Assembly (NCBI GenBank): GCA_020633725.1
Contig: JACKDC010000005.1
Location: forward strand, 172,135 to 236,134
Origin: Candidatus Latescibacterota bacterium
Lineage (GTDB): Bacteria; Krumholzibacteriota; Krumholzibacteriia; JACNKJ01
DNA: 64,000 nt
Reading direction: 5' to 3'
The number at the start of each line of letters is the position of its first letter. Within the stretch, counting starts at the first letter, position 1. The notes beneath the pieces are model-generated. The model ran no database searches. It was given only the letters and a program-made list of their open reading frames with translations, and had not been told where the DNA came from. Position numbers and translations under genes: made by a program. Below, in pieces: positions 2 through 55,897 of this stretch.

Positions 2-3000
2 AAGGGACTGGCCGCAGGCCTGCTAGTTCTCCTCCTGGCCCTGCCGGTGCTGGCCGACGCCACGCGCCTGCCGCTCGGCGAGGACGCCACCCGACTGGAA
101 CTGCTCTCCCGGGTGGGCGATGCCTACCACTATAGGCTCAGCCTCGACGGGCTCGCCGCCGAACGCGTGATGACGCCCCAGGGCGCCTTCACCCGGCTCG
201 AGATTCCCGGCTACTACCACAGCCAGGACGTGGGCGCCCCCGCGCTGCCGCTCGTCAACCGGCTGATCGAGATCCCCTTCGGCGCCCGGGCGCAGGTCAG
301 CGGGATCGACGTCCGCGAGCGCACGGTGGACCTGGCCGCCAGCGGCTTCGGCGATCCGCTGCTGCCGGCGCAGGCCAGCGTCTCCAAGAGCATGGATCCG
401 GCCATGGCGCCCTTCGCTTACGATGCCGACGCCTACCGCGTCGATCCCGTGGCGCGCGATCTGGTGCGTGTGGTGGATTGCGGTCAGCTCCGCGGCGTGC
501 ACGTGGGACGTCTCGAGATCTCCCCGGTGAGCTACTCGCCGGAGGGGGGGAGCCTGCGCGTGGCCGAGAGCGTGGAGTTCACGGTGGACTTCGCGGGGGG
601 GGATCCCGTGGCCGAGGCCCGTCTCAAGGCCCTCACCCGTAGCCCCTTTTTCACCCCGGTCTACGAGCGCATCGAAGGCGTGCGCGGTCTGCACGACAGC
701 TATCCCGATCACGTCCGCGATCTGGTGACCCTCGTCGTCGTCACGCCGCCCGAGTTCGAGAATCAGCTGGCGGACTTCGTCGCGTGGAAGGAGCGCCGCG
801 GCTTCAAGACGATCCTCGCGGTAACCGGCACTCCCGAGGTGGGCAGCACCAAGGAGCAGATCCGCGACTACATCCACGGGCTCTACAACAACGCGACGCC
901 GGAGCTGCCGGCGCCCAGTTTCGTGATCTTCGTGGGCGACATCGCGCAGATGCCGACCTTCACCGAGGGCGGCGACGTGACCGACCGGCCCTACTGCGCG
1001 GTGGACGGGGACCTCTACCCCGACATCTACTACGGTCGCTTCAGCGCGACGAACCCGACGCAGCTGCAGAACATCCTCGACAAGACCCTGATGTACGACC
1101 AGTACGCCATGCCGGATCCCAGCTACCTCGACGAGGTGGTCATGATCGCGGGCATGGACGGCAGCTTCGGGTCGACCTGGGCCAATGGCCAGATCAACTA
1201 CGGGACGACCTACTACTTCAACGCGGCGCACAACATTCTCAGCCACACCTACCTGTACCCGAACTCCGGCAGCCATGCCGCCGACATCGTGCAGGACGTG
1301 AGCAACGGCGTGAGCTACGTGAACTACACGGCGCACGGCAGCACGACGAGCTGGTCGGACCCGTCCTTCACGCAGTCGAACATCAACAGCCTGCAGAACT
1401 CCGGGAAGTACTGCCTCGCCGTCGGCAACTGCTGCCTCACGAGCAGCTACGAGGTGGCGGAGTGCTTCGCGGAGACCTGGCTGCGCGTCGCGGACAAGGG
1501 CGCGATCGGCTACATCGGCGGCAGCAACTCGACCTACTGGGACGAGGACTACTGGTGGGGCGTGGGCTACGGCTCGATCGTGGCCAACCCCACCTACGAG
1601 ACTCACGAGATCGGCGCCTACGACGGCCTCTTCCATGACCATGGCGAGGCCATGACCCAGTGGTACGTCACCAACGACGCGCTGATCTACACCGGCAACC
1701 TGGCCGTGACCGAGGCCGGCAGCAACCTGATCAGCTACTACTGGACGATCTACAACCTCATGGGCGACCCGAGCCTCAGCACCTGGATCGGCACGCCGGG
1801 CACGAACCCCGTCAGCCACGACGCCACGCTGTTCACGACCAGCGCCTCGATGTCCATCAGCGCGCTCCCGAACAGCTACTGCGCGCTCAGCCAGAACGGC
1901 GTGCTCAAGGGCGCGGGCACCGTGGACGCGACCGGCACGCTGGACATGGAGATCTGGGAGCTGCTGACGCCGGGCACGGCCGAGTGCATCGTGATGGCCC
2001 AGAACAAAGTGCCGCACGTGGAGACCGTGAACATCGCCGTACCGGCGACGATCGTCTTCGATCCGGCGACGATCGACGCGGGCGTGCCCACCGACGTGAC
2101 GGTGGGCGTCTACGAGGCCGACGGCGTGACGCCCAAGCCCGGCATCGAGGTCTGGGCCGACGGCATCGGCTACGCCACCGCGCATTCCACCACCGGCGTG
2201 GACGGCACCTGCGTCCTCAGCCTGGACTACCCCTACGGCCCGAGCCTGGACATCTGCGGGCAGGACCCCGCCGAGACCTACCTGCTCTTCCGGCAGGCGC
2301 TGCCCGTCAACGCGCTGGCCCAGAGCGGCATCGCGCTGCGCGTGAACACGGACATCGGTCTGAACGGCGCCTTCCCGCTCAACCTGCCGGGCACGCTCGA
2401 GGCCTACAAGCCCTTCGGCGGCGCGCTGCCGGCGCACGAGCTGTGGGCCTACGTCAACGACGAGCCCGGGCTCATGAGCACGGCGGACGCCCTGACCCTC
2501 ACGCCGAACGCGCTGGGCAGCGTGCGCGGCGTCTTCGCGCAGGTGGGCTACGACTGCGTCGAGGCGACCTTCCCCATCATCGAGGCCTTCGGCACCCTGA
2601 CCGGCCACGTGGACGCCGACGGCAGCCCCGCGGCGGGCGCGCTGGTCCAGGGCTGGGACGGCGGCGCGCAGCCGGCCTTCGAGGCCGTCTGCAACGCCTC
2701 GGGCGACTACGACATGGGCGAGGACATCCTCGTCGCCGACTACACGCTCACGGTGACGCTCTTCGGCTTCGAGCCCTTCAGCGAGGCCCTCTTCGTCGGC
2801 TACGGGCCGAACGTGCACGACGTCGACCTGCTGCCGGCGCCGAGCGGCCTGCTCACGGGCACGATCACCGAGGCGGGCAGCGGCGCGCCCCTCGGCGCGA
2901 CCGTGCGGATCTTCCGCAGCGACACCGGCGAGCTCTACGAGGAGCTGAGCAGCAGCCCGACCACCGGCGCCTACGCCAGCGGCGCGCTGCCCTACTTCGA

Positions 3001-4117
3001 CTGGGACGTGACGGTGCGCGCGAGCGGGCACATCCCGGAGAGCGCGACCATCACCGTGGACGCGCCCGCGGTGACCCGTGACTTCGTGCTCGAGGAGACG
3101 GTCGGCAACATCCTGATCATCGACGACGGCGCCAAGTCCACCTGGCACGAGGCCAAGCTCGACCTGGCCGGCAACGTGATCGAGGCGGGCTACGAGGACG
3201 CGCCCAAGGACATCGCCACCCTGCAGGGCGACCTGGAGGGCCTTGGCTACACGGTGATCGTCGAGACCATGTCCAGCAACCCGTCCACCTGGTTCGACTA
3301 CGATTTCATCATGACCTGCAGCGGCAACAACACCACGACGCTGGACAACGCCACCTTCCGCGCGGCGCTTCTGAGCTTCGTGCAGGCCGGCGGCAAGCTG
3401 CTGGTGGAAGGCGGCGAGGTGGGCTACGACTGGGACTACCAGGACAGCGCCTGGGCCCAGGCCGTGCTGCACGTGGCAAACTGGAACCACGACAGCAGCG
3501 GCAGCGTGACCGTCTACGACGCCAACCATCCGGTGATGAGCTTCCCCAACGCCATCACGGGGCCGATCACCGTCAGCTACTCCGGATACGGCGATCAGGA
3601 CGCCCTCGTGGTGACGGCCGACGCGGAGCGCATCGGCGCCTGGACCAGCTATCCCACCGATGCGAGCATCATCGTCTGCGACCGCGACGCCACGCCCGAG
3701 GATGGCGACTTCGTCATGTTCGGCTGGTGCTATGCGTCGATGGACGCGGCGAAGCGCGTTCAGCTTCTCGAGAACGCCGTGGTCTGGCTCATCGGCGGCG
3801 GACTGACGCCCGTCGAGGAGGCGCCCGTGACGCTGCCCACCCAGGTCGCACTGCGCGGCAACTTCCCGAACCCCTTCAACCCGAAGACCTCGATCCGCTT
3901 CGAGCTGCCGGCCACGGCCCAGGTCGAACTCGCGGTCTACGACGTGAAGGGCCGCCGGGTGGCGACGCTCGTCGACGGCACCCTGATCGCGGGACCGCAC
4001 GTGGTGGAATGGCAGGGCCGTGAGGCGAGCGGCGCGCAGGCCACGAGCGGCGTCTACTTCGCCCGCCTGAAGGTGGGGGACGAGGTGCTGACGCGGAAGA
4101 TGCTGCTTCTGAAGTGA
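2..4117 (+). CDS. Peptidase C25 (gingipain-like cysteine protease) with T9SS-type C-terminal sorting domain; 5' end lies outside the window
   Basis: The frame is open back to nt 2, and nt 2-61 encode a signal-peptide-like KGLAAGLLVLLLALPVLADA, so the GTG at 47 in the ORF track is probably internal. Gingipain-type motifs VNYTAHGS (His) and LAVGNCCLTSS (Cys) are present. The C-terminal tail is FPNPFNPKTSIRFELP...GVYFARL...KMLLLK. Confidence 0.85.
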   Translation, partial: KGLAAGLLVLLLALPVLADATRLPLGEDATRLELLSRVGDAYHYRLSLDGLAAERVMTPQGAFTRLEIPGYYHSQDVGAPALPLVNRLIEIPFGARAQVSGIDVRERTVDLAASGFGDPLLPAQASVSKSMDPAMAPFAYDADAYRVDPVARDLVRVVDCGQLRGVHVGRLEISPVSYSPEGGSLRVAESVEFTVDFAGGDPVAEARLKALTRSPFFTPVYERIEGVRGLHDSYPDHVRDLVTLVVVTPPEFENQLADFVAWKERRGFKTILAVTGTPEVGSTKEQIRDYIHGLYNNATPELPAPSFVIFVGDIAQMPTFTEGGDVTDRPYCAVDGDLYPDIYYGRFSATNPTQLQNILDKTLMYDQYAMPDPSYLDEVVMIAGMDGSFGSTWANGQINYGTTYYFNAAHNILSHTYLYPNSGSHAADIVQDVSNGVSYVNYTAHGSTTSWSDPSFTQSNINSLQNSGKYCLAVGNCCLTSSYEVAECFAETWLRVADKGAIGYIGGSNSTYWDEDYWWGVGYGSIVANPTYETHEIGAYDGLFHDHGEAMTQWYVTNDALIYTGNLAVTEAGSNLISYYWTIYNLMGDPSLSTWIGTPGTNPVSHDATLFTTSASMSISALPNSYCALSQNGVLKGAGTVDATGTLDMEIWELLTPGTAECIVMAQNKVPHVETVNIAVPATIVFDPATIDAGVPTDVTVGVYEADGVTPKPGIEVWADGIGYATAHSTTGVDGTCVLSLDYPYGPSLDICGQDPAETYLLFRQALPVNALAQSGIALRVNTDIGLNGAFPLNLPGTLEAYKPFGGALPAHELWAYVNDEPGLMSTADALTLTPNALGSVRGVFAQVGYDCVEATFPIIEAFGTLTGHVDADGSPAAGALVQGWDGGAQPAFEAVCNASGDYDMGEDILVADYTLTVTLFGFEPFSEALFVGYGPNVHDVDLLPAPSGLLTGTITEAGSGAPLGATVRIFRSDTGELYEELSSSPTTGAYASGALPYFDWDVTVRASGHIPESATITVDAPAVTRDFVLEETVGNILIIDDGAKSTWHEAKLDLAGNVIEAGYEDAPKDIATLQGDLEGLGYTVIVETMSSNPSTWFDYDFIMTCSGNNTTTLDNATFRAALLSFVQAGGKLLVEGGEVGYDWDYQDSAWAQAVLHVANWNHDSSGSVTVYDANHPVMSFPNAITGPITVSYSGYGDQDALVVTADAERIGAWTSYPTDASIIVCDRDATPEDGDFVMFGWCYASMDAAKRVQLLENAVVWLIGGGLTPVEEAPVTLPTQVALRGNFPNPFNPKTSIRFELPATAQVELAVYDVKGRRVATLVDGTLIAGPHVVEWQGREASGAQATSGVYFARLKVGDEVLTRKMLLLK

Positions 4118-4193
4118 CGCGATCGCGTGTCCTCTCTCGCGCCGCTTCGAAGGCGCGCGACCCGGACACGCGACCGCTAGCAGGCAGACTCGA

Positions 4194-4220
4194 GGGGGGA
4201 GCCGCTTGGCTCCCCCCTTT
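4194..4220 (+). terminator. Rho-independent terminator after the C25 peptidase gene
   Basis: GGGGGGAGCC - GCTT - GGCTCCCCCC followed by TTT. Confidence 0.6.
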
Positions 4221-4233
4221 GCGTCCCCGACGG

Positions 4234-4242
4234 TGCTATACT
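4234..4242 (+). promoter_or_regulatory. Candidate extended -10 promoter (TGcTATACT) for the 4285-10114 operon
   Basis: TGCTATACT lies 43 nt upstream of the ATG at 4285. There is no clear -35 element. Confidence 0.3.
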
Positions 4243-4284
4243 CCAGGGCGCGCGACGCGTCGCCGCGCTCCCGGGAGGTCCACC

Positions 4285-6012
4285 ATGCGCCGAATCGCCC
4301 TGCTGCTCGCCCTCGTCCTCGTCGCCCTGCCCCTGGCCGCGCACGCGCAGTGGTCGGACGATCCCCTGGTCAACCTGGCCATCGCCGACCGCCCGTCGGA
4401 GCAGGTGGTGCCCAAGATCGCGGCCACCGCGGACGGCGGCTGTTACGTGGCCTGGTTCGATCTGGCCAGCGGCAACTACGACGTCTACCTGCAGCACCTG
4501 GACGCGGCCGGCAACGCGCTCTGGGCCCACAACGGCATCCTCGTGAGCGGCCACTCGCAGAACTCGTCCCTGGTGGACTGGGATCTCATCGCCGACAGCG
4601 AGGGCAACGCCGTCGTGGTCTTCACGGACGCGCGCGCGGGCAGCGACCTCGACGTCTACGCCTACCGCGTCTCGCCCGCCGGCGCCATGCTCTGGGGCGC
4701 CGATGGCCTGACCCTGAGCGACAACACGGACTACGAGCCCTCGCCGCGGGTGACCCAGGCGGCCGACGGCGACTTCGTCTTCATCTGGGCGCGCCTGCCG
4801 GATGTGGGCGACGGCAAGCTCATGATGCAGCGCGTCGCCCCGGACGGCACCCTGCGCTTCGCCGCCGGCGGGATCGCCGTGGCGGGCGAGGCCGGCGAGA
4901 GCCCCGGCTTCTGCGACCTGGTGCCGTCGGGCGCGGACGGCGTGATCGTCTGCTGGATCCGCGACATCAGCAGCTTCCTCAGCCCGCGCCATCTCTGGGC
5001 CGAGCGCTTCGACGTCACCGGCGCCTCCGCCTGGGGCGCGCCGGTGGTGGTCTACGACCTGGTGAGCCTGCCCATCGCCTACTACCCGCAGCTCCTCCCC
5101 GACGCCGCGGGCGGCGCGGTGCTGCTCTGGCACCGCAGCCTGAGCAACCTGTACAGCAGCCTGGTGCAGCGCCTGGACATCACGGGCACGGAGCTCTGGG
5201 CGCACCAGGGCGTGGCCGTGTCCACGTCGTCGACGCACTACCACATCTCGCCGACCTTCACCTTCGACGCGGCGACGGGCGCGACCACGGTGTTCTGGGA
5301 CGAGCGCAACACCGCCCAGAGCCAGTGGGGGATCGCGGGCCAGCGCTTCGACGCGGCCGGCGCCCGCCTCTGGGGCGACGGCGGCCGCATCTTCCTGCCC
5401 ACCGACACGCTCTACAAGTACGCCCTGCGCGCCCTGCCCGCCGCCGGCGGCGCCCTGCTCTTCTGGATCGACGAGCCCGGCGGCTTCGGCTCCGACCGCA
5501 TCCGCGGCGTGCGCGTGGACGAAGACGGCAACTACCTCTGGGGGCCCGATCCCATCGGCGTGGCCACCCTGCCCAGCGGCAAGAGCCGTCTGCCCGTGGC
5601 CGGCGCGCCCGACGGCACGGCGCTCCTCATCTGGGAGGACGATCGCGGCGGCACGGTGGACGTCTACGGCCAGAACGTGCGCCCCGACGGCACCCTCGGC
5701 GGCGATCTGACGGCCGTCCCCGGGGGCGCCCCGGCGGCGGCGGCGCTGCTCGGCGCCTACCCGAACCCCTTCAACCCGGCGACCACCCTGCGCGTGGAGC
5801 TGCCGGCGGCGGGCCGGGTGCGCGTGAGCATCCTCGATCTGCAGGGGCGGCGTGTCCGCACCCTGCACGCCGGCCTGCTGCCTGCGGGGCCGAGCGCGAT
5901 GGTCTGGGACGGCCGCGACGACGCCGGCCGCGCCCTGCCCAGCGCGCTCTACCTGGCGCGGGTGGAGACCCCGGCAGGCACGGCGACGGGCAAGCTGCTC
6001 CTGCTGAAGTGA
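4285..6012 (+). CDS. Secreted 8-repeat (beta-propeller-like) protein with T9SS-type C-terminal domain
   Basis: ATG at 4285 is preceded by GGGAGG. Signal peptide MRRIALLLALVLVALPLAAHA. Eight ~55-aa repeats of the form DG..v.W.D...g..DvY.Qrv...G...W...G. Tail YPNPFNPATTLRVELP...ALYLARV...KLLLLK. Confidence 0.8.
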   Translation: MRRIALLLALVLVALPLAAHAQWSDDPLVNLAIADRPSEQVVPKIAATADGGCYVAWFDLASGNYDVYLQHLDAAGNALWAHNGILVSGHSQNSSLVDWDLIADSEGNAVVVFTDARAGSDLDVYAYRVSPAGAMLWGADGLTLSDNTDYEPSPRVTQAADGDFVFIWARLPDVGDGKLMMQRVAPDGTLRFAAGGIAVAGEAGESPGFCDLVPSGADGVIVCWIRDISSFLSPRHLWAERFDVTGASAWGAPVVVYDLVSLPIAYYPQLLPDAAGGAVLLWHRSLSNLYSSLVQRLDITGTELWAHQGVAVSTSSTHYHISPTFTFDAATGATTVFWDERNTAQSQWGIAGQRFDAAGARLWGDGGRIFLPTDTLYKYALRALPAAGGALLFWIDEPGGFGSDRIRGVRVDEDGNYLWGPDPIGVATLPSGKSRLPVAGAPDGTALLIWEDDRGGTVDVYGQNVRPDGTLGGDLTAVPGGAPAAAALLGAYPNPFNPATTLRVELPAAGRVRVSILDLQGRRVRTLHAGLLPAGPSAMVWDGRDDAGRALPSALYLARVETPAGTATGKLLLLK

Positions 6013-6031
6013 GTTGCCTTGAATTCCGGGC

Positions 6032-8860
6032 GTGATTGGCCGAAACTTCGGCCATGCTCCAGCCCCTCGCCGTGAGTCCGTGAGGCGGACGCCGCGCGTC
6101 CTCGCCGTCGCCCTGCCGCTGGCCCTGCTCCTCGTGGGAGCGGGGACGTCGCCGCCCTGCGCCGCGGCGGGGAGCCCGGACGCCGCCCGGCGCCAGGCCG
6201 TCGCGAGCGTCGACAGCCTCTGGCTGGCGGGCGACGGCCCGGCCGCCCACGCGCTCATCGACAGCCTGCTCCCCGGCTTCAGAGCCGCGCGCGACAGCCT
6301 CGCGGTGGCCCGTCTGCAGCTGCGCCGCGGCTCCATGCGCGCTGCCCTGGGCGACGGCAACGCCGCCCTGCCCGCCCTCGACGAGTCGCTGGATCTCGCC
6401 CGCGCCCTGGGCGACAGCAGCATCGTCTGCGACGGCCTGCGCTGGCGAGCCGTCGCCCTCGGCCAGCTGGGCCGCGGCCTGGAGGCGCGGGCCGCCTTCA
6501 CCGAGCAGCTCGCCCTGGCCACGGCCATCGGCGACAGCGCGGGCCAGGGCTGGGCGCTGAGCGGACTCGCCTACCACGACGGTCTCGCCGGTGAGACCCT
6601 GCAGGCGCGCCAGCGCTACACGCGCGCGGCGGCGATCTTTCGCGCGTTGGGACACGTGCGCGGCGAGCTCTGGGTACTCAACGGGCTGGGCATGACGGCC
6701 TCGGACCTGGGGGAGTTCGGCGTCGCCCGCGACAGCTACACGCGCACGGGCGCCATCGCCCGGCAGGAGGGCTTCGGCTTCCTCGAGGCGATGGCGGAGA
6801 ACAACCTCGGCACGCTGGACTTCTCGCTGGGGGATCCCGGCCGCGCCCTCGCGCACTTCGAGCGCTCCTTCGCGCTCTTCGCGGCCCAGGGGGCGATGCG
6901 GGAACGCCTCGCCATCGCCCGCAACATCGCCGTCTGCCGCACGGAGCTGGGCGATCTCGATCACGCCATGGCCATGCTGGACTCGCTGCTGGCCGACAGC
7001 CGGGCCGGCGGCTACCAGGCGCTGGAGTACGACATCCTGCGCCAGCGGGCCTACGTGCTCTATTCCCAGAACCGCATGGACGAGGCCGCCCTCGGCTTTG
7101 CCCCGCTCATGGACTGGCCCGCGGACACGCCCGTGGACGCGCGGATCGAGACGCTCGTCGGCTACTGCGCCGCCCTCGAAGGCCAGGGCAAGTTCGCGGA
7201 GGCGCTCGCGCTCCTCGAGGCCAATGCGGACCTCGACCGCGCCGGCGTGGACCTGTCGCCGCGCCTGGACTACGCCACGCGACGGGGAATCCTGCTGCGG
7301 CGCCTGGGTCGACCCGCCGAGGCGCTGCGCCTCCTCGCCGACACCGCCCAGCGCGCCGACTCGCTGGGCCTGCAGTCGGTGCGTTCGGGCTGCCTCGTCG
7401 ACGCCGCGCGCTGCGCGGAGACCCTGGACCGCGTGGACGAGGCCCGCGGACTCTACCTCCGGGCCTGCGAGGTCTGGGAGGAGGAGCGCAGCGTGCCCCT
7501 CGATCCCGAGTGGCGCGAGCGGCGCGGCGAGACCGGCCAGGCGGCCTTCACGGGCCTGGCCTCCCTGCTGCTCGAGCACGAGGGCGCCGACTCTCCCGCC
7601 TTCCGCGACGCCTACGCCCGCCTGCAGCGCTACAAGGCGCGCACGCTGCTCGAGCACATGCGCGGCCCCGGCCCGGCCCTGCCCGCCCCGCCGCCCGCCG
7701 TGAGTCTCGAGCGGCTGCAGGGCGGGCTCCTCGCGCCCACGGAGATCCTGCTCGACGCCTATCTCGGCGAGGCGCACTCCTTCCTGCTGGCCGTGACCCG
7801 GGACTCGCTGCGCGTGCTGCGCCTGCCGCCCAGGGCCGCGCTGGAGGCGCGGCTCGATCTCTTCGACCGGCTCGTGGCCCGTCCTCCCGGGGACGACGAC
7901 TCGCGCCGGGCGCTGCTCGCGTCCGGCGGCCGCGCGCTGGCGGAGGAGCTGCTGCTGCCGCTCGCGCCGCTGCTGCGGGAACATCCCCGCGTGCTCTTCG
8001 CCCCTGACGGGGCGCTGCACGGCCTGCCGCTGGCCCATCTGGCGGGCTTCGTCCCCGGCGTGGGCGAGATCGACGGTTTCCAGGTGGTGCGCGTGCCGTC
8101 GGCGGCCGTGCTCGCGCAGCTGCGCGAGGGGGGCGAGCCCGGACCGCGTCCGGTGCAGCGGCTGCTGGCCCTCAGCGCGGACGGCGATCTCGAGGGACGT
8201 CCCCTGGCCGGCGCGCGGCGGGAGGCCAGCTACCTCGCCGGGCGCTACCGCGGCGTGGAGACGACGCTGGACCCGTCGCGGGGCGCGCTGGCCACGCTCG
8301 CCGACGCGGACCTGCTGCATCTGGCGCTGCACGCGGAGGCGCCGCCCGACTATGCCTGGCGCGCGTCGCTGTGGCTCGGCGGGGCGGAAGGTCCGGCACG
8401 GCTGTCGGCGCAGACGCTGCTCGCGCAGTCGTTCAACGCCCGGCTGGCGGTCCTGGCTGGCTGCAGCACCGCGGGCGGGCGCATGCCGGTGGGCGCGAGC
8501 GCGCAGAACATCGCCAGCGCGCTGCTCGGGGCGGGCGTGCCGGCCGTGGTGGCGAGCCTCTGGGCGCTTGACGACGCCGCCGCCCTCGCCTTCGCTCGCG
8601 CCTTCTACCCGCGTCTCGAGCGCGGCGAAAGCGTGGCGGCCGCCCTGGCCGGGGCCCGCGCGGAGCTTGCCGCCGTGGCGCCGGATCCGTACTACTGGGC
8701 GGGTCTGGTGCTGGTGGGCGACGGCGACGCCCGGCTCGCCCTGCGCCGCCGCCGGCTGCCCCCACGGGCCGCCGGGCCGCTCGCCGCGGGCGCCGGGCTG
8801 CTGATCCTCGCCTTCACGGTGGCTGTGATTTCGCGTACGGAAGGAGCGTCGAAGGGATGA
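6032..8860 (+). CDS. TPR-repeat + CHAT-domain (caspase-like, clan CD) protein with signal-like N-terminus and C-terminal membrane anchor
   Basis: Long TPR-like helical region, then a CHAT-like core: FAPDGALHGLPLAHL, LHLALHAE (His codon 8330-8332) and LAVLAGCSTAGG (Cys codon 8462-8464). Hydrophobic AGAGLLILAFTVAVIS lies near the C-terminus. The start is uncertain (GTG 6032 or GTG 6080). Confidence 0.8.
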   Translation: MIGRNFGHAPAPRRESVRRTPRVLAVALPLALLLVGAGTSPPCAAAGSPDAARRQAVASVDSLWLAGDGPAAHALIDSLLPGFRAARDSLAVARLQLRRGSMRAALGDGNAALPALDESLDLARALGDSSIVCDGLRWRAVALGQLGRGLEARAAFTEQLALATAIGDSAGQGWALSGLAYHDGLAGETLQARQRYTRAAAIFRALGHVRGELWVLNGLGMTASDLGEFGVARDSYTRTGAIARQEGFGFLEAMAENNLGTLDFSLGDPGRALAHFERSFALFAAQGAMRERLAIARNIAVCRTELGDLDHAMAMLDSLLADSRAGGYQALEYDILRQRAYVLYSQNRMDEAALGFAPLMDWPADTPVDARIETLVGYCAALEGQGKFAEALALLEANADLDRAGVDLSPRLDYATRRGILLRRLGRPAEALRLLADTAQRADSLGLQSVRSGCLVDAARCAETLDRVDEARGLYLRACEVWEEERSVPLDPEWRERRGETGQAAFTGLASLLLEHEGADSPAFRDAYARLQRYKARTLLEHMRGPGPALPAPPPAVSLERLQGGLLAPTEILLDAYLGEAHSFLLAVTRDSLRVLRLPPRAALEARLDLFDRLVARPPGDDDSRRALLASGGRALAEELLLPLAPLLREHPRVLFAPDGALHGLPLAHLAGFVPGVGEIDGFQVVRVPSAAVLAQLREGGEPGPRPVQRLLALSADGDLEGRPLAGARREASYLAGRYRGVETTLDPSRGALATLADADLLHLALHAEAPPDYAWRASLWLGGAEGPARLSAQTLLAQSFNARLAVLAGCSTAGGRMPVGASAQNIASALLGAGVPAVVASLWALDDAAALAFARAFYPRLERGESVAAALAGARAELAAVAPDPYYWAGLVLVGDGDARLALRRRRLPPRAAGPLAAGAGLLILAFTVAVISRTEGASKG

Positions 8861-9444
8861 GACGGCGCTACGCGACCCTGGACGACGACGCCCTGCTGAC
8901 CCTCGCCCGCAACGCCGGCGACGAGGGCGAGCGCCGTCAGGCCGCCGCCGCGCTGCTCGCGCGCTACCACGGGCGGGTCTACCAGTGGTGCGCGGGCCAG
9001 CTGGGCGACCCACAGCGCGCCGAGGACGCGGCGCAGGAGGTGCTCTTGTCCGCCTATCGTGCCCTGCCCGGCTTCGACGGCCGGGCCCGCTTCGGCTCCT
9101 GGCTCTTCGCCATCGCGCGGAACCGGTGCCTGAGCGAACGGCGGCGGCGAGCCTTCCCGCGGGCGGAGGTCGAGCCCGACAGCCGTCCGGCCACGACGCC
9201 CGACCCCGAGCGCGAACTCATCGAGCGCGACGCCCGCGACGCCCTGCTGCGACGTCTCACGCGCTGGCTGGATCCGCTGGAGCAGGAGGCGGTCTGCCTG
9301 CGCTATCTCGAGCGCATGCCGGTCGACGCCATCACGCGGGTCCTCGACATCACGCAGTCCAGCGGCGCCCGCGGCGTGCTGCAGAGCGCACGGCGCAAGC
9401 TGCGCCGCGCCTACCCCGACCGGGAGGCCTTCCAGGATGACTGA
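8857..9444 (+). CDS. ECF-type RNA polymerase sigma factor
   Basis: Region 2 (AEDAAQEVLLSAYRALPGFDGRARFGSWLFAIARNRC) and region 4 (LEQEAVCLRYLERMPVDAITRVLDITQSSGARGVLQSARRKLR). The ATG overlaps the CHAT stop codon (ATGA). AAGGAG RBS at 8841. Confidence 0.9.
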   Translation: MRRRYATLDDDALLTLARNAGDEGERRQAAAALLARYHGRVYQWCAGQLGDPQRAEDAAQEVLLSAYRALPGFDGRARFGSWLFAIARNRCLSERRRRAFPRAEVEPDSRPATTPDPERELIERDARDALLRRLTRWLDPLEQEAVCLRYLERMPVDAITRVLDITQSSGARGVLQSARRKLRRAYPDREAFQDD

Positions 9445-10114
9445 GCCCCGCCACACGCACTGCATCCCCGTCGAGGGCCTGGGCGAGCTGGAGGCGCTGT
9501 CGCCGGAGCATCCCTGGCGGCGGCATCTGGCGGACTGCCCGCACTGCCGCGCGCTGCTGGCCGCCTACCGCGGCTTCGTGGACGGCGACGCCGCCCGGGC
9601 CGACGCCACGCGCGAGGCGCGGCTGGCGGCCTTCATCGAGCGGGAGATCGCGGGACAGGACCGGCCCGAGCCACACGGCCTCGCGCCGCGGCGGCGTCGC
9701 GGCCTGCCCCGCTGGCTGGCGCCGGCGCTGGGCGTCGCGGCGGTGGGGTTCATCGCCATCGGCCTCTGGCCGCACGCCGAGGGGCCGGAGCCCCGCCTGG
9801 GCGAGGCGCAGCGCGGTCCGAACCGGAGCGTGGACTCGCTGGTCGTCGCGACCCGTGCGGAGGGGGTGCTGCTGCGCTGGCAGGCGCCCGTGGACGGCGA
9901 GCGCGCCGAGGTGCTGGTCTTCGACGCCACCGTCAACCCGCGCGCCGCGTTTCGCGTGGGGGACGCCGACTCGCTGCTGCTGACGCGCGGCCGCCTCGAT
10001 TCGCTGCGAGCAGGGGGGGGCGCCCTCTACTGGCGCGTGCGCGTGGAAACGCCCGGCGGACCCGCCGAGTCCGCCCCGCAACCGCTGCCGGAGCCGCGCG
10101 ACCAGCGTCCCTAG
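9437..10114 (+). CDS. Anti-sigma factor, zinc-binding (ZAS, H-x3-C-x2-C), single-pass membrane protein
   Basis: HLADCPHC motif (nt 9524-9547), one TM segment (WLAPALGVAAVGFIAIGLW) and a ~110-aa C-terminal domain. It overlaps the sigma gene by 8 nt. Confidence 0.75.
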   Translation: MTEPRHTHCIPVEGLGELEALSPEHPWRRHLADCPHCRALLAAYRGFVDGDAARADATREARLAAFIEREIAGQDRPEPHGLAPRRRRGLPRWLAPALGVAAVGFIAIGLWPHAEGPEPRLGEAQRGPNRSVDSLVVATRAEGVLLRWQAPVDGERAEVLVFDATVNPRAAFRVGDADSLLLTRGRLDSLRAGGGALYWRVRVETPGGPAESAPQPLPEPRDQRP

Positions 10115-10124
10115 CCCCGTCCGG

Positions 10125-10496
10125 CTAGCACTCCGGATCGCCCGTGGGGCCCAGGTCGTCCAGCAGCTCTTCCAGGTCGCGGGTCTCTTCACCGCTGTTC
10201 GCCAGCCGCCGCGCCTGCGCGTAGTCGGCGTCGAGGTCGGCCTTGAAGCGCTCGGCCGTCTGGCGCGCCTGGCTTCCAGAGGCCATCCGGCGCTGCCGCA
10301 TGCGCCGCAGGAACGAGCGGTAGGGGTCTTCGCAGGTGTAGTCCTTGAGGGTGTAGCGCGCCACGAAGCGGCCGCAGGCGGCGCACTCCACGAAGACGTC
10401 CACGTCCTGCCCGGGGCGCATCAGCACCAGGTTGTGCATGGCGGTGCCGTCGCAGTGGGGGCAGTGCTCCCGCTTGGTCCTCACGTCCAGCTCCAC
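10125..10496 (-). CDS. Small zinc-ribbon protein (CxxC...CxxC), function unknown
   Basis: GTG start preceded by GGAGGTGGAG. Motifs CPHC and CAAC. It lies 24 nt downstream of the DASS transporter gene on the same strand. Confidence 0.6.
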   Translation of the reverse strand: MELDVRTKREHCPHCDGTAMHNLVLMRPGQDVDVFVECAACGRFVARYTLKDYTCEDPYRSFLRRMRQRRMASGSQARQTAERFKADLDADYAQARRLANSGEETRDLEELLDDLGPTGDPEC

Positions 10497-10520
10497 GCTC
10501 CACCTCCGTCGGGACGGGGT

Positions 10521-11897
10521 CTAGGGTACCGCCGGGAAGAGCCCCGGCAACCAGCGAAAGACGGCGCTCTCGTAGAGCACCGTGAGCAGAATCCCCAGCA
10601 CGGTGATCAGCGCGCCCACGCGGGCCATGTCGCGAACGCTGAGTCGCTCCGATCCATAGGCGATGGCGTTGGGAGGGGTGCTGATGGGCAGCGCCATGCC
10701 CAGGCTCGCGCAGAGCGCGGCCGCCACGCCCATGCGGGCCGGCCAGGCCGCGGCCACCGTGAGCGCCAGGGGCAGGATGACGTTCGCGCTCGCCGTGTGG
10801 CTGATCACCGTTGCCAGCAGCGCCATGGCCGCGCCCACGATGGCCAGGGCGGCCAGCGGCGGCAGGCCGTCGAGGGCGAGCACGCGCACGACGCTCTCGC
10901 CGAGCCCCGTGGCCTGAATCCCCACGCCCAGGGCGAGCCCGCCGCCGATGAGCAGCAGGATGTCCCAGGCCAGGTCGCGCAGGTGCTCCTTGTCGAAGAG
11001 CCCCGCCACGCTGAAGACGCAGACCGGCAGCAGCGCCACCAGGGCCGAGGGGATGTGGTGGACGGCGTCGCTCAGCCAGAGCAGCACGGTCACGGCGAAG
11101 GTGCCGTAGACCAGCCCGCGCCGCGACGCCGGCCCGCCCGCGGGCAGGTCCAGCGTGAAGGCGCTTCCACCCAGCGGGAAGAAGGCGAGCAGCAGCGCGT
11201 AGGCGATGGCGAGCATGAGCAGCATCAGCGGAAAGGCGCCGGCCATCCAGGCGAGGAAGGACAGGTGCACGCCGCGGTCGGCCAGCAGCCCGATGGCGAT
11301 GGCGTTGGGCGGCGTGCCGATGGGCGTGCCCATCCCGCCGATGTTGGCCGCGAAGGGGATGCCGAGCAGGAAGGCGCGCGCCAGCGGGCTCTCCCGGGGC
11401 AGGCCCCGCACCAGGGGCAGCAGGCTCGCCACCATGATCGCCGTGGTGGCCGTGTTGGACATCCACATGGACATGCCTGCGGTGAGCAGCATGACGCCCA
11501 GCAGCACCCGGCGCGGGCGCAGCCCGAAGCGCGCGAGGCAGAAGCGCGAGAACTCGAGGTCGAGGTTCTGGCGGCTGAAGACGCGGGCCATCACGAAGCC
11601 GCCGAACATGAGGACGACCACGGGACTGGCGAAGGGGGTGAGGAAGAGGCGGTAGTCCAGCGCCGGCGCCCCGAAGCTGGGTCCCAGCGGCCCCAGGAGC
11701 AGGGCGCTGGCGAAGGCCGTGACCACGCCCGTCACGTAGAGGGGCACGGGCTCGGTGATCCACCAGTGCACCGCGAAGACGAAGACGCCGGCCATGATCC
11801 GCTGCGCGGACGGCAGTCCGCCGAGGAGGCTGGCCACGAACAGGCCGAGCAGAGGGCCGGCGGCCAGTGCGACCTGCCGGCGTCGCTGGGGAGACAT
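10521..11897 (-). CDS. SLC13/DASS family anion:sodium symporter
   Basis: Polytopic membrane protein with duplicated SNTATTAIM / GTPPNAIA / STPPNAIAYG hairpin motifs typical of DASS permeases. Confidence 0.85.
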   Translation of the reverse strand: MSPQRRRQVALAAGPLLGLFVASLLGGLPSAQRIMAGVFVFAVHWWITEPVPLYVTGVVTAFASALLLGPLGPSFGAPALDYRLFLTPFASPVVVLMFGGFVMARVFSRQNLDLEFSRFCLARFGLRPRRVLLGVMLLTAGMSMWMSNTATTAIMVASLLPLVRGLPRESPLARAFLLGIPFAANIGGMGTPIGTPPNAIAIGLLADRGVHLSFLAWMAGAFPLMLLMLAIAYALLLAFFPLGGSAFTLDLPAGGPASRRGLVYGTFAVTVLLWLSDAVHHIPSALVALLPVCVFSVAGLFDKEHLRDLAWDILLLIGGGLALGVGIQATGLGESVVRVLALDGLPPLAALAIVGAAMALLATVISHTASANVILPLALTVAAAWPARMGVAAALCASLGMALPISTPPNAIAYGSERLSVRDMARVGALITVLGILLTVLYESAVFRWLPGLFPAVP

Positions 11898-18547: not shown

Positions 18548-19399
18548 TCAGAGCGTCACGAGCAGGCCGACGGAGAGGCGCACACCCACGAGGTCCAGCG
18601 GATAGGAGCCGCCGAGGATGTCGTTGGTGCCCCAGTCCTCGATGGCCGCCGGGTCGATGACCCCTTCCCGCGCGAGGTACTGGAGCGAGCCCTCGTAGTC
18701 GAAGGTCTGACGGATGTCGCCCATGATGCCCTGGATCTCGGCGTTGATGGACATGCGCGAGGCGAAGCGGTAGATCAGGCCGGCCAGCCCCATGTAGGCG
18801 AGCGTGGTGTCGGTGGCCTTCACCTCGAAGTGCCGATCGGGCAGGGGGACGTCCTCCGCGTCGGTCACGCCGCCGACGTTCAGCAGGTCGATGCCGAGAC
18901 GGCTGTCGGCGGCCATGATGCCGACGCCGAAGCCCACGTAGGGCTGCAGCAGCTCGCTGCGCACGAACTCCAGTCCGTAGTGCAGCGTCAGGTCCAGCTC
19001 GTGGAGGCGGGTCTTGAGTTCGCGCGGCGAGGACCAGCCGCGCGGATCGAAGGTCGCCGCGCTCGAGTAGCTCGAGGTGCTGTAGGTGGCCGCGAAGCTG
19101 ATGGCGCGCCGGTAGCGCCAGAACGCGCGCAGGCCCACCGGGAGTCCGGAGTCGAAGTCGCCGATGCGCGTGCCCGGGTCGCTGCCCATCACGGCCATGA
19201 TGTCGTTGGTCCTGAACAGCAGGTTCGAGTGGCTGGGTCCGGCGTAGGTGGCCACCATCGCGCCGACGCTCCAGCGTGGACCGGTGGGCATCAGGGACTC
19301 GCTGCCGGCCCCGGGCGGCGAAGTCGCGGAGGCCGAGCTGGCCGAGACGACGAGGGCACAGAGAGCGAGCAGGCGAAGCAAGGGCAGCCGTCGGCGCAT
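18548..19399 (-). CDS. Outer-membrane beta-barrel protein (porin-like), function unknown
   Basis: Signal peptide MRRRLPLLRLLALCALVVSASSASA, alternating amphipathic strands, AGGAGG RBS. The internal ATG at 19399 is preferred over the ORF-track start. Confidence 0.6.
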   Translation of the reverse strand: MRRRLPLLRLLALCALVVSASSASATSPPGAGSESLMPTGPRWSVGAMVATYAGPSHSNLLFRTNDIMAVMGSDPGTRIGDFDSGLPVGLRAFWRYRRAISFAATYSTSSYSSAATFDPRGWSSPRELKTRLHELDLTLHYGLEFVRSELLQPYVGFGVGIMAADSRLGIDLLNVGGVTDAEDVPLPDRHFEVKATDTTLAYMGLAGLIYRFASRMSINAEIQGIMGDIRQTFDYEGSLQYLAREGVIDPAAIEDWGTNDILGGSYPLDLVGVRLSVGLLVTL

Positions 19400-19448
19400 C
19401 GTTCCTCCTTGGGGACCCCGGAAAGGTAATGGCCGCAGGACCTTGGAA

Positions 19449-20741
19449 TCAAGCGGGTTCCGGCGGCAGGGCGCCCCGCGCCGCGTCGAGGAAGTCCATG
19501 CTGCGCTCGACCGCACCGGCGCCCGCCCGCACGAAGTCCAGGGCGGCGCGACCGGCCGCGCCGCGCGCCTGCGGATCCAGCAGCGCCCGCCAGCGGGCGA
19601 GCAGCGACGGGCCGTCCTCCACCACGTAGCCGCCGCCTGCCTCCACGAGCCGCCGCGCCTCGTCGGCCCGGCCGATCCTCGGCCCCAGCAGCACGGGCAG
19701 GCCGCGCGCCGCGGGCTCGAGCACGCTGTGCACGCCGCGGCCGAAGCCGCCGCCCACCAGTGCGATCTCGCCCGCCGCGTAGAGCTCGGGCAGGATCCCC
19801 ACGCGATCGGCGACGCAGACGCCGCCGTCGGCCAGGGCCGGCCGCTCGCTCAGCGTCCAGAGCGGAAGCTGGCGCGCGGCGGCGCTCCGCCGCAGGCGCG
19901 CGACGGCCTCCGCCGCGGGCTCGTGCGGCACGAGCAGCAGCCGCAGGTCGGAGCGCTCGTCGAGAAGCGCGCGGAAGGCGTCCAGCAGCATGTCCTCCTC
20001 GGGCGGCCAGGAGCTGCCGGCGACGAGACAGGCGCCGCCCGCCGCGCCACCAGTGCCACCCAGGGGCGAGGGCCTGCCCTCGGCCACGCGCGCCAGCACG
20101 CGGTCGAAGCGGGTGTCGCCGGTGACGGCGACGCGCCCCGCCGGCACGCCGAGCGCGGCGAAGGCGAGCGCGTCGCGTTCGCTGGCGGCGCCGACGCCGG
20201 CGAGGCGAGCGTGCAGCGGCACGGCGAGCAGACGTCCCGGCCAGCGCGCGCGCCCCGAGTCCGGGCTCAGCACGCCGCCCAGGAGCAGGGCCGGGCAGCC
20301 CTCGCGCTCGGCCTCGAGCACGAGGTTGGGCCAGAGGTCCCACTTCACGGCGGCGACGGCGTCGGGCCGCAGCGCGTCCAGCAGGCGGCGCATGGCCCGC
20401 GGCGTGTCGGCGGGCAGGGGGCCGACGACGTCCGCCGCGGCCACGCTCTCCACGGCCCGGCGCGCGGACGGCGACGCCACCGTGAGCATCAGTGCGGCGT
20501 CGGGGTAGCGCGCGCGCAGGCCGTCCAGGATGGGCCGCGCCTGCTCCAGCTCGCCCGCGCTGGCCGCGTGCAGCCAGAGGCGGGGCGAACGGGCGCGCAG
20601 CGCGGCGAGCGCCTGCCGGTCGAGGGGCGCCTCGCGGCGCCAGGCCAGCTGCGCGCGCAGCTTGGGCGCGAAGGGCGCCGCCAGGGGCAGCAGCGCGGCG
20701 GCCACTGGCGAGAGCGCGCGATAGAGCCCGAGCACGCTCAC
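19449..20741 (-). CDS. waaA: 3-deoxy-D-manno-octulosonic acid (Kdo) transferase
   Basis: WLHAASAGELEQARPIL and C-terminal GGSF/GG.HS-type glycosyltransferase motifs. The GTG start at 20741 overlaps the stop of the upstream GT9 gene (GTGA). Confidence 0.85.
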   Translation of the reverse strand: MSVLGLYRALSPVAAALLPLAAPFAPKLRAQLAWRREAPLDRQALAALRARSPRLWLHAASAGELEQARPILDGLRARYPDAALMLTVASPSARRAVESVAAADVVGPLPADTPRAMRRLLDALRPDAVAAVKWDLWPNLVLEAEREGCPALLLGGVLSPDSGRARWPGRLLAVPLHARLAGVGAASERDALAFAALGVPAGRVAVTGDTRFDRVLARVAEGRPSPLGGTGGAAGGACLVAGSSWPPEEDMLLDAFRALLDERSDLRLLLVPHEPAAEAVARLRRSAAARQLPLWTLSERPALADGGVCVADRVGILPELYAAGEIALVGGGFGRGVHSVLEPAARGLPVLLGPRIGRADEARRLVEAGGGYVVEDGPSLLARWRALLDPQARGAAGRAALDFVRAGAGAVERSMDFLDAARGALPPEPA

Positions 20742-21781
20742 GACAGCACTCCCATGCGCTCGAGTTCGGCGAGCACCCTGGGGGCGTCGATGGCGCGGAG
20801 GCAGTCGGCGTGACCGTAGCGGCAGGGCTTCTCGCCGTGCAGCGCGCAGGGCCGGCAGGCCAGCGGCCGTTCGAGCACCCGGCTGTCCGCGAGTCGCGGG
20901 CCAAAGCCGAAGGCGGGCACGGTGGGACCGAAGAGCGTCAGCACGGGCACGCCCACGGCTTCGGCGAGGTGGGCGAGGCCGCTGTCGCCGCCGACCAGCA
21001 CGCGGCCGCGGGACAACGCCGCAGCGACGCGCGGCAGCGGCCGGTCGCCGGTGTAGTCCACGACGCCCTCGCCGGCGAGACTGGCGGCGAGACGCCGGTC
21101 GTCGGGCCCGCCCACCAGCAGCACGGGCAGCCAGCCGCGCAGTCCGTTCACGAGCGCGTCGACGTGGGGCCAGGTCTTGGCGGGCCAGGCCGCGCCGGGC
21201 GCGACGAGCACGGGGTCGTCCGCCGTGGCGAGTCCCAGGCTGGCCAGCTCGGCGTCCACGCTTCGGCGCAGCTCCGCGTCCAGCGGATAGACGGGACCCG
21301 CACAGCCCGCCGATTGCCGGTAGGCCGTGCCGAAGGCGCGGCGGACCGTCTCGCGATGCCGCTGCCACACGGGCGTGAGCGGCGCGCGCGGTCGCCAGGC
21401 CGACGGCCAGCCGGGGCGCGAGAGCATCGCGCGCCGGCGGAGATCGTGGCGCGGCGTGCTCCACCAGCCCGCCGGCGGCGTGGCCAGGCGGCGGCGGAGC
21501 AGCCGGCTGCGCAGGTTCACGTGGAAGTCCAGCACGCGGTCGAAGCCCTCGTCGTCCAGCGCGCGCGCGAGCCCCGTCAGCGCGCGGCGGTCGCCGCCAC
21601 GGGGAAAGCTCCACACGCGTCGCAGGGTGTCGATGGGGGCGAGCAGCGAACTCCACGGCTCGAGCGTGAGGAAGTGCCGCTCGTGCTCGGGTCCCGGCTC
21701 GCTGGCCTCCAGATCGCGCAGCGCCGGGAGCGTGAGCACGAGGTCGCCCAGGGAGCCGAAGCGGATGAGGAGTGTCTTCAT
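20738..21781 (-). CDS. Glycosyltransferase family 9 (LPS heptosyltransferase-like)
   Basis: N-terminal LIRFGSLGDLVLTLPALRDL, C-terminal GGDSGLAHLAEAVGVP. Confidence 0.8.
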   Translation of the reverse strand: MKTLLIRFGSLGDLVLTLPALRDLEASEPGPEHERHFLTLEPWSSLLAPIDTLRRVWSFPRGGDRRALTGLARALDDEGFDRVLDFHVNLRSRLLRRRLATPPAGWWSTPRHDLRRRAMLSRPGWPSAWRPRAPLTPVWQRHRETVRRAFGTAYRQSAGCAGPVYPLDAELRRSVDAELASLGLATADDPVLVAPGAAWPAKTWPHVDALVNGLRGWLPVLLVGGPDDRRLAASLAGEGVVDYTGDRPLPRVAAALSRGRVLVGGDSGLAHLAEAVGVPVLTLFGPTVPAFGFGPRLADSRVLERPLACRPCALHGEKPCRYGHADCLRAIDAPRVLAELERMGVLS

Positions 21782-55746: not shown

Positions 55747-55799
55747 GCTGCTTGCTGAAGACGTGGTGATGGACGGGCTGCTTGCTCTGTCGTGCAAGC
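55747..55799. repeat. 10-bp direct repeat GCTGCTTGCT x2 spaced exactly 30 bp, plus an inverted GCAAGC copy
   Basis: Copies at 55747-55756 and 55777-55786, with the inverted half at 55794-55799. They lie in the 272-bp divergent control region. Confidence 0.35.
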
Positions 55800-55897
55800 T
55801 TCGGCTAATCATATCACAGGTCGGGCGGCGATGGAACGGCAGTCTGACATGCGGGGCGCCCCGAGAGCGCAACTGGCGGAAACATTCCCGGCGAATC

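Follow-up and report, generated by a model that had tools for sequence, protein, structure and literature searches.

A 64-kb stretch of DNA from a Candidatus Latescibacterota bacterium, referred to here as the window, carries near its 5' end a row of four forward-strand genes, the last three of which are the subject of this analysis: they encode a TPR-CHAT protein, a sigma factor of the extracytoplasmic function (ECF) type and a putative anti-sigma factor, which we discuss as a candidate envelope-signaling module. The row begins with the gene for a putative propeller protein (4285-6012) and continues with the TPR-CHAT gene (first listed as 6032-8860, probably 6080-8860), the sigma gene (8857-9444) and the anti-sigma gene (9437-10114), and it is faced by a convergent open reading frame (ORF) on the reverse strand (10125-10496). 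All five are where the original prediction had placed them, except for the start of the TPR-CHAT gene, and in an independent gene call taken from the identical public contig their products have 575, 926, 195, 225 and 123 amino acids, respectively. The local GC content is ~72-77%. The stop codon of the TPR-CHAT gene and the start codon of the sigma gene overlap as ATGA (8857-8860), and the sigma and anti-sigma genes overlap by 8 nt (9437-9444); both junctions, which had been described previously, can be read directly in the sequence.

The TPR-CHAT protein, the sigma factor and the anti-sigma factor

The start of the TPR-CHAT gene at 6032 was probably set too early. The independent gene call favors a GTG codon at 6080, and the database copy of the protein (P0001, 100% identical) begins 16 codons downstream of the 6032 start. 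GTG 6080 is the most likely start, and it yields a product of 926 amino acids with a signal-like N-terminus, MRRTPRVLAVALPLALLLVGAG...AAAG. In this protein, a putative signal peptide (residues 1 to ~31) is followed by a helical solenoid of TPR-type repeats (residues 33-530), a caspase-like CHAT domain (~555-887), and a C-terminal transmembrane helix (895-924; nt 8762-8851) with a short, presumably cytoplasmic, tail. The two domain assignments of the original prediction were borne out by Pfam, in which the CHAT family PF12770 was matched with an E-value of 1e-32 and 114 bits (cut-off 24) over profile positions 4-289 of 289, and TPR_12 was matched in six stretches (E 9e-24). The AlphaFold2 (AF2) model of the protein, which shows the solenoid, an alpha/beta CHAT domain and the terminal helix, has a mean predicted local distance difference test score (pLDDT) of 88.7 and a predicted TM-score (pTM) of 0.82, and its transmembrane helix starts 8 residues past the last strand of the CHAT domain.

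The putative catalytic dyad consists of His 751 in the motif LHLALHAE (codon 8330-8332) and Cys 795 in the motif LAGCSTAGG (codon 8462-8464), exactly as proposed from the sequence of the window. Both residues are invariant in 35 full-length homologs as well as in 33 CHAT domains derived from the loci described below. The ~35 full-length homologs share 33-43% identity with the protein. Since the homologs in the two sets are divergent (~32-39% identity), the invariance of the dyad argues for selection on catalysis and implies that the TPR-CHAT protein is an active enzyme. Of the 57 family members, 51 have a C-terminal transmembrane helix with a basic, Arg-rich tail. A hydrophobic segment at the N-terminus is seen in 43 of the 57, and most of the others lack it as an artefact of choosing the start of the longest ORF. 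These hydrophobic features at the two termini, together with the positive-inside rule, indicate that the protein is periplasmic and anchored in the inner membrane, which would place it on the same side of the membrane as the C-terminal domain of the anti-sigma factor, in line with the original topology.

We compared the protein with solved structures by both fold and sequence profile. A Foldseek search with the whole AF2 model recovered DdvA (8rw5/8rot) as the best match (E 4e-14, TM-score ~0.5), followed by separases and Csx29, all with a probability of 1.00. A family profile restricted to the CHAT domain likewise recovered DdvA (8rot_B, E 6.5e-7) ahead of separase and Csx29 in the PDB, and His 862 and Cys 907 of DdvA were aligned opposite the His and Cys of the family. 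The restriction to the CHAT domain mattered, in that a single-sequence search of the PDB returned TPR proteins only and a full-length profile was swamped by TPR matches. By profile as well as by fold, DdvA is therefore a nearer comparator than the Csx29/Csx30/RpoE system that had been suggested initially.

In the profile searches with the second gene product, the Sigma70_r2 family was matched with an E-value of 2.7e-17, the match to Sigma70_r4 was weak (E 0.0015), and the sigma70-ECF family TIGR02937 was matched at residues 29-185 with 79.4 bits (cut-off 42.9). No match to sigma-70 regions 1 and 3 was obtained in the profile search of the 195-residue protein, and its nearest solved relatives are SigW, SigH and SigE. 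By these profile matches, it is an ECF (group 4) sigma factor, as originally predicted. With regard to a numbered ECF group, no NCBIfam subfamily reached its cut-off, and CHAT is not mentioned in the main text of the paper that reclassified the ECF sigma factors.

The third gene product is predicted to be the single-pass, zinc-binding anti-sigma (ZAS) factor of the neighboring sigma factor. A CHCC zinc-type motif (C9/H30/C34/C37) is located in a helical domain that is predicted to be cytoplasmic (helices at residues 12-71). In the AF2 model, this domain is followed by a transmembrane helix (residues 92-109; nt 9710-9763), a linker (residues 110-127) that is disordered, with pLDDT values below 50, and a confidently modeled beta-sandwich resembling FN3 domains on the periplasmic side (residues 130-220; nt 9824-10096), for which the fold matches were FN3 and cytokine-receptor domains. 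The motif H-x3-C-x2-C is present in 68 of the 77 family members, all but one of which (67 of the 68) also contain the N-terminal Cys. The linker ends with L125-R126-G127, and R126 (nt 9812-9814) is invariant in 34 database homologs and, among 43 sequences derived from the loci, retained in at least 90%, usually in the context L-R-G and at a distance of ~15 residues from the transmembrane helix. The HLADCPHC motif, the single transmembrane segment and the C-terminal domain on which the ZAS assignment was originally based are thus all present, whereas the expected match to a zf-HC2 profile was not obtained. The sole NCBIfam match was a weak one to NF052375, named 'antisigma' (E 1.4e-6, 28 bits, cut-off 100), and no solved relative was recovered from the PDB with either the single sequence or a family profile.

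The FN3-like domain is not confined to anti-sigma factors. In a representative library containing one protein per 50%-identity cluster, 585 proteins matched the anti-sigma profile at E <= 1e-30, and a few of the strongest of these matches were large multi-repeat proteins rather than anti-sigma factors. In seven proteins of 930-2180 residues (P0127, P0136, P0161, P0223, P0247, P0250 and P0263), the domain is present in 10-18 tandem copies, and it thus belongs to a wider family of repeat domains for which there is no Pfam model.

Conservation of the three genes and a shared promoter-like motif

Relatives of the TPR-CHAT gene were collected by scanning one genome per species, and all ORFs in 80 loci (numbered L001 onward) were searched iteratively with hidden Markov models. 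We considered a locus to contain the module if the CHAT gene had homologs of the sigma and anti-sigma genes next to it, encoded on its own strand. By this definition, 42 modules were identified, all in metagenome-assembled genomes of Candidatus Eisenbacteria, Krumholzibacteriia/Krumholzibacteria and Latescibacterota; relatives of the CHAT protein were also found in 'Fibrobacteraceae', and often there were several per assembly. The gene order is conserved in two forms: CHAT, sigma, anti-sigma in 29 of the 42 modules, as in the window, and sigma, anti-sigma, CHAT in the remaining 13, with the latter order scattered over several distinct clades in the tree of the CHAT proteins. The genes are tightly packed in both arrangements. 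The median distance is 25 nt between CHAT and sigma (with a 4-nt overlap in 8 of 29 cases), -4 nt between sigma and anti-sigma (overlapping in 31 of 41) and 3 nt between anti-sigma and CHAT (overlapping in 3 of 12). Moreover, starting in the reverse direction from four anti-sigma homologs, the order CHAT, sigma, anti-sigma was recovered in all five places returned.

The three proteins co-diverge: the Mantel correlation of pairwise distances was 0.66 for CHAT and sigma and 0.44 for CHAT and the periplasmic part of the anti-sigma factor, as compared to a maximum of 0.26 in the permutations. The genetic and functional linkage of the three genes is close to certain. In the window and in all 42 modules, the ZAS domain with its transmembrane helix and the TPR-CHAT region are encoded by separate genes, and a fused form with zf-HC2 and CHAT domains is found elsewhere (P0082). 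No sigma/anti-sigma pair was found beside the more distant CHAT homologs (L055-L080, from the Acidobacteriota and similar lineages), so that the link between CHAT and sigma factors is specific to this clade. Two or more CHAT paralogs in tandem are present on some contigs, such as in L001 (20-2623 and 6983-9796), L052, L055, L073-L075 and L079, and those of the distant lineages (Acidobacteriota, Anaerolineae and Bacteroidota) have no sigma/anti-sigma partner.

Promoters recognized by ECF sigma factors consist of a -35-like box and, at a fixed distance from it, a -10 box of the CGTC type. A sequence of this form, GTGATT-N15-GCGTC, was identified on the forward strand of the window at 8825-8850 and scored with a leave-one-out position weight matrix (PWM). 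The motif occupies the final codons of the CHAT gene, and its -10-like box ends 6 nt upstream of the sigma start codon. Whichever the gene order, the motif directly precedes the sigma gene, with equivalent sites in 41 other loci (for example at 9793 in L001 and 534 in L057), where its general form is cTGTGATTcc-N(~11)-tGCGTCtc, or GTGAT-N15-GCGTC, with variants covered by GTGAT(T/C)-N15-G(C/T)GT(C/T). The site at 8825-8850 is the top-scoring one on either strand of the 64-kb window (21.8 bits, as against a maximum of 19.0 bits in 20 shuffles), and in 20 of the 42 loci the best site of the whole locus (~16 kb) falls within 60 nt 5' of the sigma gene. A search for bipartite k-mers upstream of the first gene of the module yielded nothing convincing; the signal emerged when the search was anchored on the sigma start.

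GTGAT-N15-GCGTC is a candidate autoregulatory ECF promoter. Since it is situated so close to the sigma start codon, the sigma/anti-sigma mRNA would be leaderless or nearly so, and use of the site by the sigma factor itself would give positive feedback. The translational coupling of the CHAT and sigma genes that was originally proposed is real, but the sigma gene also has this promoter-like motif of its own. None of the propeller, CHAT and C25 peptidase genes of the window is preceded by a site of more than 7.9 bits. That value is reached by a lone GTGATT hexamer at 6032-6037 on the forward strand, 48 nt 5' of the likely CHAT start, which is not followed by a CGTC-type -10 box and which includes the GTG codon that was first taken as the start of the gene. 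In some sigma-first loci (L007, L005), an inverted repeat, CCCTCC...GGAGGG, is located near the motif 5' of the sigma gene and could represent a leader hairpin.

Besides the sites in front of the sigma genes, there were 35 other PWM sites of at least 17 bits, 12 of which are located directly past the last gene of the module and before the next co-directional gene. In each of these 12 loci, out of 42, the gene behind the second motif copy encodes a protein with the C-terminal tail of type IX secretion system (T9SS) cargo. The second copy precedes a propeller gene in L001 (11162), L003 (10969), L038 (4619) and L069 (11348), and another type of T9SS cargo in L048 (11222), L053 (11202), L002 (9795), L005 (9685), L008 (9076), L027 (9494), L047 (9523) and L057 (4530). 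This pattern suggests that the motif-preceded cargo genes are direct targets of the sigma factor. More generally, T9SS-cargo genes adjoin 23 of the 42 modules, compared to an expectation of roughly a quarter; the type of cargo varies and includes propeller, beta-helix and CARDB proteins.

A proposed split DdvA-like system and alternative explanations

The best match of the TPR-CHAT protein, DdvA from Myxococcus, is a ZAS anti-sigma factor with a CHCC zinc site and one transmembrane helix, to which a periplasmic TPR-CHAT region is fused (PMC11506125). Without its TPR-CHAT region, DdvA becomes exposed to the protease RseP (PMC11506125, Sci Adv 2024), and it has been proposed that the CHAT domain acts as a site-1 protease that self-cleaves the linker in trans within a dimer (PMC11506125; PMC6061681). 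The signal was not known to the authors of that study, who found DdvA-like proteins to be essentially confined to the Myxococcota and DdvA-DdvS to control an island of CBASS (cyclic oligonucleotide-based antiphage signaling system) and CRISPR genes (PMC11506125).

The resemblance to the module in the window is extensive. Both systems have a TPR-CHAT region that faces, or is predicted to face, the periplasm and carries a canonical His-Cys dyad; both combine an ECF sigma factor with a single-pass, CHCC-type zinc anti-sigma factor; and the same site-1/site-2 logic may be proposed for the two. The differences are also clear. What is fused in DdvA is here distributed over two polypeptides, with a TPR-CHAT protein that has its own signal peptide and C-terminal anchor, and a short anti-sigma factor of 225 residues in which a separate linker and an FN3-like domain replace the DdvA scaffold, so that any cleavage would occur between different proteins rather than between the protomers of a dimer. 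Sequence identity is just ~14-15%. DdvA itself lacks a three-helix insert at the active site. The hosts are candidate phyla of the Fibrobacterota-Chlorobiota-Bacteroidota (FCB) type (Eisenbacteria, Krumholzibacteriia and Latescibacterota) instead of Myxococcota, and the neighboring genes encode T9SS cargo and housekeeping functions instead of CBASS and CRISPR components. No paper on the split form of TPR-CHAT and anti-sigma factor was found; the literature on TPR-CHAT proteins with sigma factors consisted of the papers on DdvA and on craspase. The locus is apparently an undescribed, in-trans variant of DdvA in other phyla.

We therefore favor the hypothesis, to which we assign a probability of roughly 50%, that the three genes constitute an envelope-signaling module that works as a split DdvA-DdvS-like system, in which the CHAT protease cuts the anti-sigma factor in trans. 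The proteolytic step itself has about even odds. In the proposed scheme, the exported TPR-CHAT protein would remain tethered by its C-terminal helix, with the TPR array and the active site in the periplasm and near the membrane, while the anti-sigma factor would retain the sigma factor in the cytoplasm via its CHCC zinc-binding helical domain and present to the periplasm the flexible linker of ~18 residues with the conserved Arg (L-R-G), and then the FN3-like domain. A periplasmic signal, probably a protein, may be sensed by the TPR array, the FN3-like domain or both and activate the CHAT domain, which would then cut the linker in trans at site 1. The remainder of the anti-sigma factor would be cleared by an RseP-type site-2 protease and thereafter by cytoplasmic proteases, and the released sigma factor would use GTGAT-N15-GCGTC promoters, including its own. 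In many of the sister loci, it may also drive the adjacent gene for a T9SS-secreted protein. The cleavage of the anti-sigma factor by CHAT, the position of the cut, the role of a site-2 protease, the promoter function of the motif and the nature of the signal are all inferred. Substrate-like traits of the anti-sigma factor are the disorder predicted for residues 110-127 between the transmembrane helix and the confidently modeled beta-sandwich, and the conserved R126 at ~15 residues from that helix.

Several observations weigh against this scheme. First, the H862A and C907A mutants of DdvA had no phenotype under the conditions tested (PMC11506125). The anti-sigma factor had no Pfam match at E <= 0.01, zf-HC2 (PF13490) included, no gene for a site-2 protease was found in the 64-kb window, and the PWM scan revealed no second copy of the motif, and hence no local target gene, in the window. 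The conserved Arg is located at the edge of a folded domain and could have a structural role. Finally, in the 13 sigma-first modules the CHAT gene lies 3' of the sigma promoter, as would be expected of an output gene.

The strongest of the alternatives, although clearly less probable, is that the TPR-CHAT protein serves as a sensor or co-anti-sigma factor, with the TPR array binding the FN3-like domain and thereby shielding or exposing the anti-sigma factor, as RseB does with RseA, while the initial cleavage is left to another protease. In that case the dyad would act on a different substrate or in autoprocessing. In favor of this role, TPR arrays are known to bind proteins, the co-divergence of CHAT with the periplasmic part of the anti-sigma factor (r = 0.44) suits binding as well as cleavage, and the catalytic mutants of DdvA were silent under the conditions tested. 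Such a role is more difficult to reconcile with a His-Cys dyad that is invariant in two sets of 35 and 33 divergent homologs, and no gene for another protease is conserved in the module.

Somewhat more doubtful is the idea that CHAT is an output protease for the maturation or degradation of exported proteins, such as T9SS cargo, with the sigma/anti-sigma pair merely controlling its expression. The 13 modules in which the CHAT gene is located 3' of the sigma and anti-sigma genes in the predicted transcript would fit, as would the excess of T9SS cargo beside the modules and the motif copies in front of cargo genes in 12 loci. But in 29 of the 42 modules, including the one in the window, the CHAT gene is 5' of the motif near the sigma gene and would not be induced from it. 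Furthermore, the cargo types vary while CHAT, sigma and anti-sigma co-diverge, and what the nearest relative does is to serve an anti-sigma factor as its sensory domain.

A more elaborate version of the split DdvA-like scheme, which we regard as similarly doubtful, is a surface- or secretion-signaling circuit dedicated to T9SS cargo in FCB candidate phyla. The TPR-CHAT protein would sense a cargo-related protein cue in the periplasm, such as cargo in transit or the C-terminal sorting domain of the cargo, cut the linker in trans at the Arg, and thereby allow the sigma factor to drive its own leaderless transcript as well as the neighboring cargo gene. If true, no earlier case of a caspase-like site-1 protease with a separate anti-sigma protein as its target would be known, and type IX secretion would have a new regulatory layer.

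It is improbable that the module is an anti-phage sensor like DdvA-DdvS or the type III-E craspase, in which periplasmic phage proteins would be the signal and defense genes elsewhere in the genome the target. The reasons for considering it are that DdvA-DdvS, the closest characterized relative, controls a CBASS/CRISPR island and that CHAT proteases recur in defense systems, as exemplified by Csx29 of type III-E. Yet only a subset of the DdvA-like pairs are located near defense systems (PMC11506125), the motif-marked neighbors in the sister loci encode T9SS-secreted proteins rather than defense functions, the flanking genes in the window are housekeeping genes, and neither the module nor the unannotated ORFs tested yielded a cas or PADLOC match. 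A reading of the window as a defense island was rejected, as Pfam and PADLOC identified no defense genes among the ORFs searched. That the CHAT gene and the sigma pair are neighbors by chance is very unlikely indeed. All that speaks for it is that TPR-CHAT and ECF genes are generally abundant in genomes of this kind. Against it stand the synteny of 42 modules, the occurrence of two gene orders, the overlaps at the junctions, the co-divergence of the proteins and the recovery of the trio from the anti-sigma side.

The type III-E craspase system (Cas7-11/gRAMP, Csx29, Csx30/Csx31 and RpoE) also links a TPR-CHAT protein to an ECF-type sigma factor and the protein that restrains it, and the folds are related, with Csx29 matched by Foldseek at E-values of 2e-12 to 1e-8. 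However, Cas7-11, Csx30, Csx31 and a CRISPR array were not found in the module or among the ORFs of the window that were scanned. Csx29 is cytoplasmic and activated by RNA, whereas the protein described here is predicted to be periplasmic and membrane-anchored, and Csx29 ranks below DdvA and separase in the profile and fold searches.

The classical systems of regulated intramembrane proteolysis, DegS/RseP-RseA-sigmaE in E. coli and PrsW/RasP-RsiW-sigmaW in B. subtilis, resemble the module in that a single-pass anti-sigma factor is encoded beside an ECF sigma factor in an operon, which in the module is predicted to be autoregulated as well, and in that the initial cleavage is ascribed to a protease outside the cytoplasm. 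Here, the candidate for the latter role combines a TPR sensor with a cysteine peptidase of clan CD, as opposed to a serine protease (DegS) or a metalloprotease (PrsW), and it is encoded within the operon. There is neither an RseB-like partner nor a site-2 protease in the 64-kb window.

In the Bacteroidota, pairs of ECF sigma and anti-sigma factors control neighboring loci that encode surface or secreted proteins, as in the trans-envelope signaling linked to polysaccharide utilization loci. The module shares with these an FCB-type lineage and a neighboring gene for an exported protein, with the motif in front of T9SS cargo in 12 sister loci. It differs in that it lacks a SusC-like TonB-dependent transducer as well as a FecR-type anti-sigma factor, the position of the sensor being taken by the CHAT protease, and in that no candidate target promoter was found in the window besides that of the sigma gene itself.

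Because the proposal that a CHAT domain acts as a site-1 protease has already been published for DdvA, the principle is not new; the split architecture and the lineage are. The proposal for DdvA is unproven because the trigger is not known and the catalytic mutants are silent, and it rests on one fused protein. Since the two halves are separable in the module described here, the idea becomes directly testable in trans: the protease and its substrate can be expressed, mutated and titrated apart, with the disordered linker and its conserved Arg as the candidate cut site and GTGAT-N15-GCGTC as the candidate reporter. Our findings also extend the range of TPR-CHAT/ECF signaling beyond the Myxococcota, since a large family of such modules is present in FCB-type phyla that are uncultivated, and several paralogous modules can co-occur in a single genome. 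The association of the module in these lineages is with genes for T9SS-secreted proteins and not with phage defense, and the presence of the motif suggests that its output is related to secretion in many of the sister loci.

The propeller gene and the remainder of the window

The product of the gene at 4285-6012 is of a secreted type with a signal-like N-terminus. Internal repeat periods of 57, 58, 113 and 225 residues correspond to ~8 repeats of ~57 residues, which agrees with the eight repeats of the propeller in the original prediction. The T9SS tail predicted at its C-terminus was also recovered, with a marginal score for TIGR04183 (23.1 bits, cut-off 23) and a match to FlgD_ig at residues 506-561 (E 2e-10). 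The suggestion that the propeller may be a co-sensor was not supported. The gene is a variable neighbor that adjoins only ~6-9 of the 42 modules, with full-length homologs in L001, L003, L009, L038, L039, L048 and L069, and in four of these loci (L001, L003, L038 and L069) it is located 3' of the anti-sigma gene with a sigma-type motif before it, which makes an output a likelier role than a co-sensor.

Upstream of the propeller gene, a GC-rich hairpin (GGGGGGAGCC-GCTT-GGCTCCCCCC, followed by UUU) is located at 4194-4220 on the forward strand. RNA folding gave a stability of -30.2 kcal/mol (z = -4.3), which none of 200 shuffled sequences reached. The stable fold of the originally predicted terminator is thus supported, while the scan for consensus terminators did not call it, as the run of T residues is short. 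It is likely the terminator of the upstream C25 peptidase gene and the 5' limit of the unit. An extended -10-like box, TGCTATACT, can be read directly at 4234-4242 on the forward strand, 42 nt 5' of the propeller ATG. The identical nonamer occurs 5' of the C25 peptidase gene (L081, ~170-178), and it is AT-rich as compared to the GC content of 72% in the genome. It is a candidate housekeeping-type promoter for the transcription of the propeller gene, and with it the CHAT gene, and may represent the kind of promoter that the organism uses for housekeeping transcription. A scan for sigma-70 promoters at 3900-10600 identified no site.

The C25 peptidase gene itself (47-4117, forward strand), directly 5' of the row of four genes, encodes a large gingipain-family protein with Propeptide_C25, Peptidase_C25 and C25 Ig-like domains, as well as CarboxypepD_reg and a T9SS tail, and is like CHAT a clan CD cysteine peptidase. 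It may be a PorU-like sortase or a secreted protease. On the other side, the product of the convergent ORF at 10125-10496 has two CxxC pairs (CPHC...CAAC) that resemble a zinc ribbon, and an acidic tail; no family was assigned to it in Pfam, NCBIfam or PADLOC.

Much of the remaining window consists of housekeeping genes, such as those for aconitase, uvrA, lepA, lepB, hemN, hrcA-grpE-dnaJ, rpoD, glmS and glmM. In agreement with the original prediction of no CRISPR component, no cas gene or other defense match was found when ORFs called past 19 kb were searched against Pfam, precomputed Pfam matches were consulted for the public copy of the first ~19 kb, and the module and five unannotated ORFs were run through PADLOC. 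Five large ORFs have a coding-like GC content at third codon positions and matched neither Pfam nor PADLOC; they are located at 19248-20813 and 26782-28203 on the forward strand, 48429-51491 on the reverse strand, 55792-58218 on the forward strand and 58377-59879 on the reverse strand. At the 3' end of the window, a forward-strand ORF (60928-64000) that continues past the last nucleotide encodes a multihaem cytochrome with 13 paired-CXXCH stretches and a match to an MtrC/MtrF-like domain.

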